From positions 494,813-558,812 of the forward strand of contig OZ250138.1 in the NCBI GenBank assembly GCA_965237465.1: DNA of 64,000 bases, read 5' to 3'. The notes beneath the pieces are model-generated. The model was not told where the DNA came from and made no database searches. It was given only the letters and a program-made list of their open reading frames with translations. This document shows, one piece after another, positions 12,430 through 14,376 of this stretch. Origin of the DNA: Dehalococcoidia bacterium. GTDB lineage: Bacteria; Chloroflexota; Dehalococcoidia; UBA6926. Made by a program: the position numbers and the translations under genes. Each line of letters opens with the position of its first letter. The first letter of the stretch is position 1.

Positions 12430-13659
12430 ATGCCGTACACAACATCGCTGCGCTGCAGGGAGTGTTCCAGAGAGTATGAGTTGCAGCCGATTAACGTCTG
12501 CGACTTTTGCTTTGGTCCACTCGAGGTTCAGTACGACTACGATGCGATTGGTCGCGTCATGTCGAGGGAGTCGATTCAGCGGGGCCCGCACAGCATGTGG
12601 CGCTATGCGGAGCTTCTGCCCGCCGCAGCTGAGAACCCCGTCGATATCAACGCCGGATACACGCCGCTTATCAAGGCCGACCGTCTGGGAAAGGCGCTCG
12701 GCCTGAATGAGCTCTACATCAAGAATGACTGCGTGAACCCAACCTACTCGTTCAAGGATCGCGTTGTGTCCGTGGCCGTGACGGCAGCGCGGGACTTCGG
12801 GTTTACGACGCTGGCTTGCGCCTCCACCGGGAATCTGGCGGGGTCTGTGGCGGCTCACGCCGCCCGCGCCGGAATCCAGTGTTACGTCTTCATTCCTGCC
12901 GACCTGGAGGTGGGCAAAGTGGTGGGCGCGGCGATCTATGGGCCGACGCTCGTCGCCGTTGATGGCAGCTATGACGATGTCAATCGCCTGTGCTCCGAGA
13001 TAGCCGATCGATACGGCTGGGCGTTCGTCAACATCAACGTCCGACCATTTTATTCTGAGGGCTCCAAGACGCTGGGCTATGAGGTGGCGGAGCAACTTGG
13101 GTGGCGCGCGCCTGATCACGCCATCGTGCCCGCCGCGTCCGGTTCCATGTTCACCAAGATCTGGAAGGGGTTCAACGAGTTTCACAAGCTGGGCCTGATT
13201 GAAGAGCCAACTACGCGGATGCACATTGCGCAGGCGGAGGGATCCGCGCCGATTGTGTCTGCGTACGAGGCCGGCATTAAGGACATCCGGCCCGTCCGGC
13301 CCAACACCATCGCCAAGTCGTTGGCTATTGGGAATCCCGCGGACGGCTATTACGCCCTCAACGTCATTGAAGAGAGCGGAGGAACCGGGCACGCAGTATC
13401 CGATCAGGAGATTGTGGCGTCCATGCGGCTGCTGGCGGAAACGGAAGGCATCTTTGCCGAGACGGCGGGAGGCGTGACCATCGGCGTGCTGCGTCGCCTT
13501 GCCGAGGAGGGCGTAATAGGGCCCAACGAGATAGCCGTCGCCTACATCACGGGCAACGGCCTCAAGACGCAGGAGGCTGTCCAGGAAATTGCAAAGTCCG
13601 TACGGATTAGCGCCTCCCTGAAGGAATTTGAGGACGCGATCAAGACCGAAGACGCGTGA
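12430..13659 (+). CDS. thrC: Threonine synthase (ThrC) family PLP-dependent enzyme with N-terminal Cys4 zinc ribbon; possibly MetM-like O-phosphohomoserine-dependent homocysteine synthase
   Basis: PLP lysine motif SFKDR, the glycine-rich loop, and an N-terminal CRECS…CDFC zinc ribbon. The gene is followed immediately by a NIL-domain protein and a MoaD-like GG carrier (see findings). Confidence 0.85.
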   Translation: MPYTTSLRCRECSREYELQPINVCDFCFGPLEVQYDYDAIGRVMSRESIQRGPHSMWRYAELLPAAAENPVDINAGYTPLIKADRLGKALGLNELYIKNDCVNPTYSFKDRVVSVAVTAARDFGFTTLACASTGNLAGSVAAHAARAGIQCYVFIPADLEVGKVVGAAIYGPTLVAVDGSYDDVNRLCSEIADRYGWAFVNINVRPFYSEGSKTLGYEVAEQLGWRAPDHAIVPAASGSMFTKIWKGFNEFHKLGLIEEPTTRMHIAQAEGSAPIVSAYEAGIKDIRPVRPNTIAKSLAIGNPADGYYALNVIEESGGTGHAVSDQEIVASMRLLAETEGIFAETAGGVTIGVLRRLAEEGVIGPNEIAVAYITGNGLKTQEAVQEIAKSVRISASLKEFEDAIKTEDA

Positions 13660-13720
13660 CCTCAGGCCGGCGGCATATGACATTTAGGGCGAGGCGTTCA
13701 CGGAATCGTTGGGGGTAGCA

Positions 13721-13963
13721 ATGGCGAAGCTCAGAGTCCGATTCACTTTCGCATCCGAGCTGATACAAGAGCCCATCATCTGGTCCCTGGGCCGCGAGTA
13801 TAAACTCGTCACAAATATTCGCCGCGCCAATGTTGAGGAAGATCAGGGCTGGGTTGTACTGGAGCTTGAGGGTGAACAGGACGAAATTGATCGCGGGGTC
13901 GCGTGGGTGACAAGCAAGGGTATACGCGTGGACCCCGTGCCTGGAGACGTCATCGAGGGCTAG
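13721..13963 (+). CDS. Stand-alone NIL-domain (MetN C-terminal-like) small protein
   Basis: 80 aa. The pattern resembles the MetN NIL/C2 domain (RVRFTF…EPIIWSLGREYKLVTNIRRANVEEDQGWVVLELEG…GVAWV…G.RV). The ATG at 13721 has the SD gggggtagca. Confidence 0.55.
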   Translation: MAKLRVRFTFASELIQEPIIWSLGREYKLVTNIRRANVEEDQGWVVLELEGEQDEIDRGVAWVTSKGIRVDPVPGDVIEG

Positions 13964-14100
13964 CGCCGCTCCGGACCAGACGCTTTCCCTCAGCCTCACA
14001 GATTGCGAACATCCCTCGTTCCGCTATAGTGATATGCAGTCGCCCCTGATAGTTAAGCCCAACCAAAGAACAGCATGTTTTCGATAAGGAGTCACGGTCT

Positions 14101-14376
14101 ATGTCGGTCACGGTAAAGATTCCAACGCCCCTTCGGCGAGTAACGGATGGTGTAGATCAGATTGAGGCCGACAGTGACCAACTGGCTGGCGCGCTGGCGC
14201 AGCTCAATGAGCAGTTTCCGGGGATCAAGGAGCGCCTTTTCAACGACGAAGGCGCGCTGCACCGGTTCGTGAACATCTACGTGAATGGCGAGGACGTTCG
14301 CTTTCTTAGTGGCCTTGACACACCCCTGAAAGAGGGCGACGAAGTGAGCATCGTGCCGGCTGTCGCCGGAGGCTAA
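14101..14376 (+). CDS. MoaD/ThiS/CysO-family sulfur-carrier protein (C-terminal Gly-Gly)
   Basis: 91 aa ending …VSIVPAVAGG. SD aaggag upstream. Confidence 0.75.
   Translation: MSVTVKIPTPLRRVTDGVDQIEADSDQLAGALAQLNEQFPGIKERLFNDEGALHRFVNIYVNGEDVRFLSGLDTPLKEGDEVSIVPAVAGG

Follow-up and report, generated by a model that had tools for sequence, protein, structure and literature searches.

Organization of the locus

The stretch of DNA considered here, called the window throughout, is a segment of 64,000 nucleotides from contig OZ250138.1 of an uncultured Dehalococcoidia bacterium (Chloroflexota). It carries three consecutive genes on the same strand, which encode a pyridoxal 5'-phosphate (PLP) dependent enzyme of the ThrC family, a NIL-domain protein and a small sulfur carrier ending in Gly-Gly (GG). 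The three genes very probably constitute an operon for the route that leads from O-phosphohomoserine to homocysteine, known as the MetM/MetO pathway.

12430-13659, + strand: gene of a MetM-like PLP enzyme of the ThrC family (409 aa; Pfam PALP and NCBIfam matches)
13721-13963, + strand: gene of a stand-alone NIL-domain protein (80 aa, no cysteine; Pfam NIL)
14101-14376, + strand: gene of a MetO-like sulfur carrier (CysO-type ThiS/MoaD beta-grasp protein; 91 aa, C-terminus AVAGG followed by the stop codon)

An earlier note on this DNA had described three co-oriented open reading frames (ORFs) for a ThrC homolog, a NIL protein and a GG carrier, and all three are found as described. It had further proposed that the ThrC homolog is a MetM-like enzyme that depends on the carrier. 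This proposal is supported by the clade to which the enzyme belongs, the adjacent carrier gene, riboswitches upstream of orthologs, ThrC paralogs and the active site. The same three genes occur in the same order in the L002/L003 locus, although its enzyme shares 70% identity with that of the window and none of the flanking genes correspond, and this order is found in 25 of 42 Chloroflexota loci. Because the triad recurs in this manner, its arrangement is not a chance juxtaposition.

A 430-aa ORF on the opposite strand (12391-13683) spans the whole gene of the MetM-like enzyme. In all likelihood this is a shadow ORF opposite a GC-rich gene, because its G+C content at third codon positions (0.60) is lower than that of the other long ORFs of the window (about 0.64-0.78), and because the ORF on the + strand has the PALP match and conserved homologs.

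Conserved gene context

A scan of one genome per species gave 572 confirmed relatives of the enzyme, the best 80 of which (58-85% identity to the window enzyme) were used for the comparison. They come from Chloroflexota, Cyanobacteria, Nitrospirota, Nitrospinota, Acidimicrobiales and one metagenome-assembled genome of Syntrophaceae; the clade comprises 82 sequences from at least five phyla. The genes of each locus were found by local hidden Markov model searches of the ORFs. Since the 80 loci were chosen by their similarity to the window, the proportions given here are not an unbiased census.

A gene of a CysO-type GG carrier lies directly downstream of the enzyme gene in about 74 of the 82 loci. 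The NIL gene is present in 34 of them (Chloroflexota, Nitrospirota and Syntrophaceae), and its position varies with the lineage. The order in Chloroflexota, where NIL is found in 29 of 42 loci, is enzyme-NIL-carrier, with stop and start codons that often overlap. All four Nitrospirota loci have the order enzyme-carrier-NIL, and the stop codon of the carrier gene abuts the start codon of the NIL gene. The NIL domain is fused to the carrier in the Syntrophaceae locus. Four Chloroflexota loci have the enzyme and NIL genes with no carrier gene within 1.7 kb downstream, and no NIL gene was found in any of the 30 cyanobacterial or 3 actinomycete loci. When the neighbors within 6 kb were clustered over the 80 loci, the enzyme, the carrier and NIL were the only genes that recurred across phyla; there was no conserved E1, JAMM protease, homoserine kinase or methionine synthase gene.

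SAM riboswitches upstream of orthologs

The locus of Nonomuraea gerenzanensis (L004) begins with an S-adenosylmethionine (SAM) riboswitch of the SAM-I family (RF00162, 68.7 bits), which is followed by the gene of a Zn-ribbon ThrC homolog and then by that of a 91-aa carrier ending in AVAGG. Rfam matches to RF00162 that exceed the gathering score lie immediately upstream of nine more orthologs, two from Acidimicrobiales and seven from Chloroflexota, which brings the total to ten. A covariance model built from four of the riboswitches found no additional ones in the 83 sources searched. Within Chloroflexota the riboswitch is rarer in loci that contain NIL (2 of 29) than in loci that do not (5 of 13; Fisher p = 0.02, uncorrected for phylogeny).

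In three loci from Anaerolineae/Ardenticatenales (L030, L074 and L079) a SAM riboswitch precedes a MetM-like gene, and the next 1.7 kb downstream contain neither a carrier nor a NIL gene. The enzymes encoded there may use free sulfide or a carrier that is encoded elsewhere. One of these loci, L079, also has a match to PYLIS_3, the pyrrolysine insertion sequence, at 5418-5517 (42.6 bits, gathering score 38 bits).

The PLP enzyme

The 409-aa protein matches Pfam PALP with an E-value of 7.7e-69 and belongs, as a fold-type II PLP enzyme, to the ThrC family; the CysM model gives it 37.6 bits, against a cutoff of 413 bits. Its best solved relatives are all ThrCs. Their sequences can be aligned with the window enzyme from about residue 55 onwards at 39-41% identity, as against 53-63% identity between the window enzyme and members of its clade. 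K109 aligns with the PLP lysine K61 of Thermus thermophilus ThrC, and the motif SFKDR is shared. The phylogeny called for in the earlier note places the ThrC homolog apart from the solved ThrCs and inside the MetM-like clade: in a neighbor-joining tree (no bootstrap) all 82 sequences are grouped together, separated from the ThrCs by a long branch, and the window enzyme falls inside a Chloroflexota subgroup.

The first ~55 residues, which are absent from the solved ThrCs, contain a Cys4 ribbon (C9, C12, C24 and C27) that is kept in 81-82 of the 82 relatives. The Zn ribbon was considered as a marker specific to MetM and rejected. It cannot be the discriminator, because an N-terminal ribbon region also occurs in other proteins called ThrC, from the haloarchaeon Salinigranum, from Azospirillum and from Chlorohelix, which lack the signature described next. 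The number of cysteines in this region is four in Chlorohelix, three in Salinigranum and one in Azospirillum.

The signature was defined as those positions at which 94% or more of the 82 clade members agree and at which six true ThrCs, four solved structures and two paralogs, share a different, invariant residue. There are twenty such positions, and the window enzyme carries the clade residue at all 20. In the T. thermophilus numbering, they include T88, S155, N157, R160, N188 and G64, which are replaced by L136, N203, R205, Y208, S237 and V112 of the window enzyme, respectively. The residues T88, N154, S155, R160 and N188 of T. thermophilus ThrC are those that we take to hold the phosphate. 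All five are retained in the six true ThrCs, whereas the window enzyme has L136, N201, N203, Y208 and S237, so that N154 alone is kept, as it is in all 82 members of the clade. The phosphate that stays in ThrC after its elimination is reported to direct the addition of water to C-beta (Omi et al. 2003; Murakawa et al. 2011). Replacements at the phosphate site would be expected where the intermediate shared with ThrC is led on to the gamma-addition of sulfur instead.

Two of the loci, L033 and L075, have a canonical short ThrC gene beside the operon. The products are 58-65% identical to solved ThrCs and 37-38% identical to their MetM-like neighbor. In L075 (148-3101) the order is enzyme-carrier-NIL-ThrC; in L033 the genes lie in the region 2594-6979. 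To judge from the sequences, the presence of both enzymes in one organism implies a putative branch point at O-phosphohomoserine similar to that of plants. A T-box leader (104 bits) is located just downstream of the carrier gene of L033, at 7116-7542.

The sulfur carrier

The 91-aa protein, which ends in VPAVAGG, matches Pfam ThiS (E 1.1e-18) and TIGR01687 moaD_arch (59 bits). Its best solved relative is CysO of Mycobacterium tuberculosis, to which it can be aligned from end to end (3dwg_C, E 2.6e-23; 4n6e_B, E 1.8e-20). True MoaD structures match it only with E-values of 0.003-0.008, the MoaD equivalog model TIGR01682 fails (17.7 bits against a cutoff of 66.15 bits), and no moaE gene is found beside the carrier gene.

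Conservation of the GG terminus in orthologs, which the earlier note had made a point to be examined, holds throughout: the motif is present in all locus carriers, 44 of which end in AVAGG, while many others have one or two extra residues. Residues beyond GG are found in 20 of 30 carriers from NIL-containing loci and in 7 of 45 others; the difference is significant overall (p = 8.5e-6) and not within Chloroflexota (p = 0.13). The window carrier needs no trimming, because its C-terminus is exactly GG.

Genes of molybdenum cofactor (Moco) synthesis, moaC (7662-8159) and moaA (8198-9238), are located 3-4 kb upstream on the opposite strand; the window has no moaD/moaE pair and no moeB. By analogy with MoeZR of mycobacteria, it is conceivable that one E1 is shared by Moco synthesis and the carrier.

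The NIL protein

The gene finder placed the start of the NIL ORF at a TTG codon (13709, 84 aa). The start that is conserved in nearly all homologs is the ATG at 13721, which gives an 80-aa protein beginning with MAK. The protein matches Pfam NIL (PF09383) with an E-value of 2e-14. Its homologs share 65-90% identity and nearly every one has a length of exactly 80 aa; NIL therefore appears to be under strong purifying selection. The motif T31-N32-I33-R34-R35-A36 is invariant or nearly so. The window protein has no cysteine and its homologs have no conserved one; catalytic or sulfur-binding residues are lacking altogether. NIL therefore binds no Fe-S cluster and carries no persulfide, and both of these roles were rejected. 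Databases sometimes give NIL homologs the name of L-aspartate-semialdehyde sulfurtransferase NIL-ferredoxin subunit.

An AlphaFold2 (AF2) model of NIL (predicted local distance difference test score 85) has the topology beta-alpha-beta-beta-alpha-beta. The top Foldseek match of the model is the C2 domain of the methionine importer subunit MetN with bound selenomethionine (3tuz_H, template modeling score 0.82, root mean square deviation 1.2 Å); ACT domains score lower. The methionine bound by MetN spans the C2 dimer and is hydrogen-bonded to N295, and the mutation N295A abolishes binding. N32 of the window NIL aligns with this residue, and an Asn is present in 35 of 37 NILs of the loci. This conserved Asn and the existence of tandem NIL-NIL proteins suggest that NIL may bind methionine at a dimer interface.

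Fusions of NIL to carriers, JAB and other domains

A profile search of 1.84 billion representative proteins was used to find fusions of the NIL domain. Proteins in which two NIL domains stand in tandem were found, which is consistent with a dimer. Fusions of the type carrier-GG-linker-NIL form at least five clusters that share less than 50% identity with one another and belong to two carrier types: P0294, P0302, P0376 and L054 have a CysO-type carrier, and P0273 and P0331 a ThiS-type carrier. One protein (P0268) is a fusion of Prok-JAB with NIL, and another (P0251) a fusion of a MetM-like PALP domain with NIL, which is possibly a read-through product. Single fusions of NIL to GNAT, GFO/IDH and thioesterase domains were also found.

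The gene context of the fusions extends this association. A contig from the Logan assembly of SRR14702244 (L087, 1-3172) has all the known components of the MetM pathway in one operon. Its genes code for a MetM-like enzyme with 55.6% identity to that of the window, for a carrier fused to NIL (MetO-GG-NIL), for an E1 of the rhodanese-ThiF type and for the first part of a JAB protein. This carrier would have to be freed of its NIL domain by cleavage. In L086 (1-2352) an E1 gene is followed by that of a CysK/M-type enzyme and then by that of the ThiS-NIL fusion P0273. L085 (1-8937) contains cysK and the genes of 3'-phosphoadenosine 5'-phosphosulfate reductase and a CysO-type carrier, with the JAB-NIL fusion P0268 further along, and the gene of the P0302 fusion sits between tusA and an E1 gene. 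By fusion and by operon context, NIL is thus tied to thiocarboxylate-carrier systems beyond those of the MetM-like enzyme, and it may serve sulfur-carrier pathways in general. No paper connecting NIL with such systems was found in a check of the literature that left aside the primary MetM paper.

Proposed pathway and role of NIL

From the gene content, orthology, conserved context, riboswitch linkage, remodeled active-site residues, NIL fold and NIL fusions described above, we infer a mechanism; all of its chemical steps, as well as the ligand and the target of NIL, are put forward conditionally. A MoeZ-type E1 (ThiF plus rhodanese), encoded elsewhere in the genome, would adenylate the carboxylate of the carrier's Gly-Gly terminus and so lead to its conversion into a thiocarboxylate. 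The MetM-like enzyme would bind O-phosphohomoserine and eliminate the phosphate to give a PLP-bound vinylglycine intermediate. Instead of adding water at C-beta, as ThrC does, it would accept the carrier thiocarboxylate (or sulfide) at C-gamma. The product would be homocysteine, possibly formed via an adduct of the carrier and homocysteine.

The NIL protein would then bind methionine at its dimer interface in the manner of the NIL/C2 domain of MetN and throttle the reaction between the enzyme and the carrier. It would act after translation, as the counterpart of the SAM riboswitch by which other lineages control this operon. The scarcity of the riboswitch in NIL-containing Chloroflexota loci is consistent with NIL as its stand-in. 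That NIL is a methionine-sensing regulatory subunit, similar in function to ACT domains, is an attractive suggestion which we rate a little short of probable. The two proposals taken together, a MetM/MetO operon with NIL as its methionine sensor, are on balance likely to be right. The enzyme-carrier pair would then be a new, mis-annotated member of a pathway that was published in 2024, and NIL a new element, which is undescribed as far as the literature was checked.

Alternative explanations

Several observations weigh against the proposed pathway. The enzyme passes both NCBIfam models for threonine synthase, NF006050 (321 bits, cutoff 303) and TIGR00260 (296 bits, cutoff 167). Its orthology to the characterized MetM of Streptomyces albulus is presumed through proxies, namely a Nonomuraea protein (53.6% identity) and the Microcystis protein of L082 (59% identity, same clade). 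A Microcystis member of the clade is reported to have weak activities in vitro as a threonine synthase, dependent on O-phosphohomoserine, and as a threonine deaminase, and not to raise methionine in vivo. Genes of an E1, a JAMM protease, a homoserine kinase or a second ThrC are absent from the window, and a search of Rfam at E <= 1 found no family, and hence no riboswitch, between 11800 and 14800. The passed models, the Microcystis activities and the lack of a second thrC in the window, together with the fact that all the best solved relatives are ThrCs, would suit an ordinary threonine synthase, or a bifunctional synthase and deaminase as reported for Microcystis, with NIL and the carrier as regulatory or unrelated neighbors. 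The NCBIfam models evidently do not separate the MetM clade from ThrC, however, and MetM is commonly mis-annotated as threonine synthase according to GapMind. The ten riboswitches upstream of orthologs respond to SAM and are not a threonine-related control, four of the phosphate-site residues of ThrC are invariantly replaced, canonical ThrC paralogs adjoin the operon in L033 and L075, and a GG carrier is nearly always adjacent. Neither hom nor thrB, which would provide a threonine-pathway context, is found within the window; nor are metX and metY. A threonine synthase is in our judgment distinctly improbable. It is more improbable still that the module makes cysteine or another thiol from O-phosphoserine in the manner of CysM and CysO. 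The closest solved relative of the carrier is CysO, and NIL-carrier fusions do adjoin CysK/M-type enzymes, yet the window enzyme belongs to the ThrC family and not to CysK/M, the SAM riboswitches point to methionine, and the characterized homolog is reported to use O-phosphohomoserine. The 91-aa protein could also be thought to be a MoaD for molybdopterin synthesis, which works with the nearby moaA and moaC and is a coincidental neighbor of the ThrC homolog, and it does pass the subfamily model TIGR01687 ('MoaD family'). This explanation has hardly anything to commend it in view of the failed equivalog model, the far better match to CysO, the lack of an adjacent moaE and the adjacency to the enzyme in most loci. 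Furthermore, the moaA/moaC neighborhood is absent from L002/L003, the sole divergent triad locus with annotated flanks, and there is no Moco-type cluster among the recurrent neighbor clusters.

The role of NIL in the MetM/MetO pathway is where the proposal can be challenged most readily. The NIL domain is fused to carriers and JAB more often than to the enzyme and is also found with a CysK/M-type enzyme, which speaks against a simple enzyme-bound sensor; L043 and L084 have a SAM-I riboswitch together with the full enzyme-NIL-carrier triad, which speaks against NIL as a replacement of the riboswitch. The AF2 model of a natural MetO-NIL fusion has two folded domains with a disordered GG junction and no fixed interface (predicted template modeling score 0.50). 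This model would fit a cleavable precursor and says nothing about an interface. NIL might thus be a handling or adaptor partner of the ubiquitin-like carrier and not a methionine sensor, with the core MetM/MetO chemistry unchanged. It could bind the carrier by its Gly-Gly tail or bind the carrier's adduct with homocysteine, deliver the carrier to the enzyme, or aid a JAMM protease in maturation or product release. Such a role would account for the carrier-GG-linker-NIL fusions with two types of carrier, the JAB-NIL fusion near a CysO-type carrier, the abutting codons of the Nitrospirota genes, the frequent residues beyond GG in carriers of NIL loci, and the company of an E1 and a CysK/M-type system. 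It also has a reported precedent in MoaX, in which the carrier MoaD is fused to its binding partner MoaE and the fusion is cleaved at GG. On the other hand, the conserved Asn of the NIL motif and the fit to methionine-bound MetN C2 favor the binding of a small molecule. The NIL gene of Chloroflexota directly follows the enzyme gene, often with overlapping codons, and in four loci it does so with no carrier nearby; the window carrier ends exactly at GG and has no use for trimming; and the correlation with C-terminal extensions is not significant within Chloroflexota. The two domains of the modeled fusion are independent, and regulatory domains such as ACT also fuse promiscuously along a pathway. 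An adaptor role, the main rival to the sensor, is rather unlikely. A broader version makes NIL more than a methionine sensor, a partner dedicated to the ubiquitin-like sulfur carriers of prokaryotes. Several lineages would make a carrier-GG-NIL precursor to be cut by a JAMM protease, like the ubiquitin fusions released by deubiquitinases, and free NIL would respond to methionine by gating or chaperoning the carrier's Gly-Gly tail or its adduct with homocysteine. This is a bolder and less probable idea. If it were true, the stand-alone NIL of the window would be the split form of an unrecognized regulatory layer on the carrier, common to MetM-type and CysK/M-type pathways.

Leader and intergenic elements

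Four elements outside the coding regions were considered in the vicinity of the three genes.

12242-12271: strong stem-loop upstream of the operon
12351-12379, + strand: promoter-like sequence TTGACT-N17-TAGCTT, read from the sequence
12385-12417, + strand: hairpin ttgcggtc-N17-gaccgcaa with an 8-bp stem, in the 5' untranslated region
14003-14030, + strand: weak promoter-like sequence TTGCGA-16-TATAGT in the 137-nt spacer between the NIL and carrier genes

The stem-loop at 12242-12271 probably terminates the upstream gene, which encodes an enoyl-CoA hydratase. The hexamers of the sequence at 12351-12379 and their spacing are kept in L001, a relative with 99% identity, and in L005 (85%), where the surrounding sequence diverges. 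A scanner for consensus promoters made no call at this site; it may be the promoter of the operon. The site at 14003-14030 provides no evidence of function, as one such site was found and 1.0 is expected by chance.

The hairpin upstream of the thrC-like gene, which had been pointed out in the earlier note, is present with its 8-bp stem; its loop is 17 nt and not 18 nt long, and it has neither statistical nor comparative support. Its folding energy is -15.4 kcal/mol (z = -1.74), and 12 of 200 shuffled sequences were at least as stable. It is retained only in the 99%-identical L001 and is absent from L005 and more distant loci. Because of these values the hairpin is no more than chance would give, and it was rejected as a regulatory element. 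Our own model of the SAM riboswitch, when run on the window, had no match at the operon and only a chance-level match at 21471-21579 (E 0.22).

Other genes of the window

The earlier note had also mentioned asd and dap genes as an aspartate-pathway context, and these could be located inside the window.

42676-43584: dapA
44423-45457: asd
45458-46276: dapB

Two further groups of genes may be described in passing. A gene of the GrdB family (glycine/sarcosine/betaine reductase selenoprotein B, Pfam E 1e-126) at 49079-50386 on the - strand contains an in-frame TGA at 49346-49348. This TGA is probably a selenocysteine codon, because the read-through product of 435 aa has the typical length of GrdB. 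The neighboring genes encode a Gly_reductase component B protein (50438-51778, - strand) and a DUF5940 protein (51781-53322, + strand). In the region 21158-25372, genes of electron-transfer flavoprotein alpha and beta (- strand) adjoin that of a 728-aa protein with CCG cysteine-rich and 4Fe-4S dicluster domains (+ strand). The region looks like an Fe-S oxidoreductase module linked to electron-transfer flavoprotein.

Implications

The clade is widespread, with members in Chloroflexota, Cyanobacteria, Nitrospirota, Nitrospinota, Actinomycetota and Syntrophaceae, and curated models still call its members threonine synthases. As a result, methionine prototrophy would be under-predicted and threonine synthesis possibly mis-assigned in many uncultured lineages, including the abundant marine and subsurface Dehalococcoidia. 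The 20-residue signature offers a simple way to separate the MetM-like enzyme from ThrC and, like the link to NIL, is undescribed as far as the literature was checked. The replacements at the phosphate site suggest how one scaffold might be switched from the addition of water at C-beta, which gives threonine, to the addition of sulfur at C-gamma, which would give homocysteine. Bacteria that have both ThrC and MetM would possess a plant-like branch point at O-phosphohomoserine.

The window also joins NIL to a third system of methionine supply, which is mechanistically unrelated to the other two, the MetNI importer and the DUF39-dependent L-aspartate-semialdehyde sulfurtransferase (L-ASST). This supports the notion of NIL as a general module for methionine status. 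The fusions of NIL to carriers and to JAB give a handle on the regulation of sulfur-carrier pathways.

Comparison with known systems

The closest counterpart of the window operon is the pathway of S. albulus, which is described as consisting of MetM, MetO, MoeZ and Mec (Hasebe et al. 2024, Appl Environ Microbiol 90:e01247-24). Both have a gene of a ThrC-like PLP enzyme followed by that of a small GG-terminated carrier of the ThiS/MoaD family. The SAM riboswitch that an mSystems paper places upstream of S. albulus metM has its equivalent in the leaders of window orthologs from Actinomycetota and Chloroflexota; the Nonomuraea locus matches the S. albulus layout of riboswitch, metM and metO, and the MoeZ-type E1 and the Mec-type JAMM protease share an operon with the homolog in L087. 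According to the mSystems paper, the 'ThrC' of Microcystis, whose gene lies next to one similar to metO, shares 51.6% identity with S. albulus MetM. Unlike the S. albulus genes, those of the window have the NIL gene inserted between the enzyme and the carrier and no riboswitch, and the carrier ends at GG and needs no trimming by Mec. The riboswitch is an accessory and not a defining feature of MetM. The host is an uncultured Dehalococcoidia-like member of Chloroflexota with a contig of roughly 2 Mb, and the likeness to MetM is drawn via the proxies mentioned above.

The CysM/CysO/Mec system of M. tuberculosis (PDB 3dwg) resembles the window operon in its carrier, as CysO is a close homolog. 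It is also similar in the chemistry proposed, in which the carrier thiocarboxylate would attack a PLP-bound unsaturated intermediate derived from a phosphorylated amino acid. The window enzyme differs from CysM in that it belongs to the ThrC family, would use O-phosphohomoserine and would carry out a gamma- and not a beta-replacement; the operon lacks a mec gene and has the additional NIL gene. With the ThrCs (PDB 1uim/1v7c, 2zsj, 6cgq and 2d1f) the window enzyme shares the fold and the PLP lysine motif and, presumably, the substrate and the first half-reaction, the gamma-elimination of phosphate. It is set apart from them by the N-terminal Cys4 ribbon, by the twenty substitutions, including T88L, S155N, R160Y and N188S, and by its regulation and gene context.

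The NIL protein has the family, the fold and the methionine-bonding Asn in common with the NIL/C2 domain of MetN (PDB 3tuz and 3dhx). MetN, the NIL-ferredoxin subunit of L-ASST (MA1822; methanogens and Desulfovibrio) and the window NIL all take part, the last by our assignment, in the supply of methionine or homocysteine. Unlike the C-terminal domain of MetN, the window NIL is a free protein of 80 aa. Unlike the NIL-ferredoxins of the MA1822 type, it has neither a 4Fe-4S domain nor a cysteine, and the window contains no DUF39/COG1900 partner. It differs from both in that its partners are a PLP enzyme and a sulfur carrier. A functional analogy may be drawn with IlvN/IlvH, the ACT-fold subunit of acetohydroxyacid synthase. 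Although IlvN/IlvH has no sequence relationship to NIL, it is likewise a small ferredoxin-like ligand-binding protein encoded directly downstream of a catalytic subunit, and it confers feedback by the end product, as NIL might do in the window operon.

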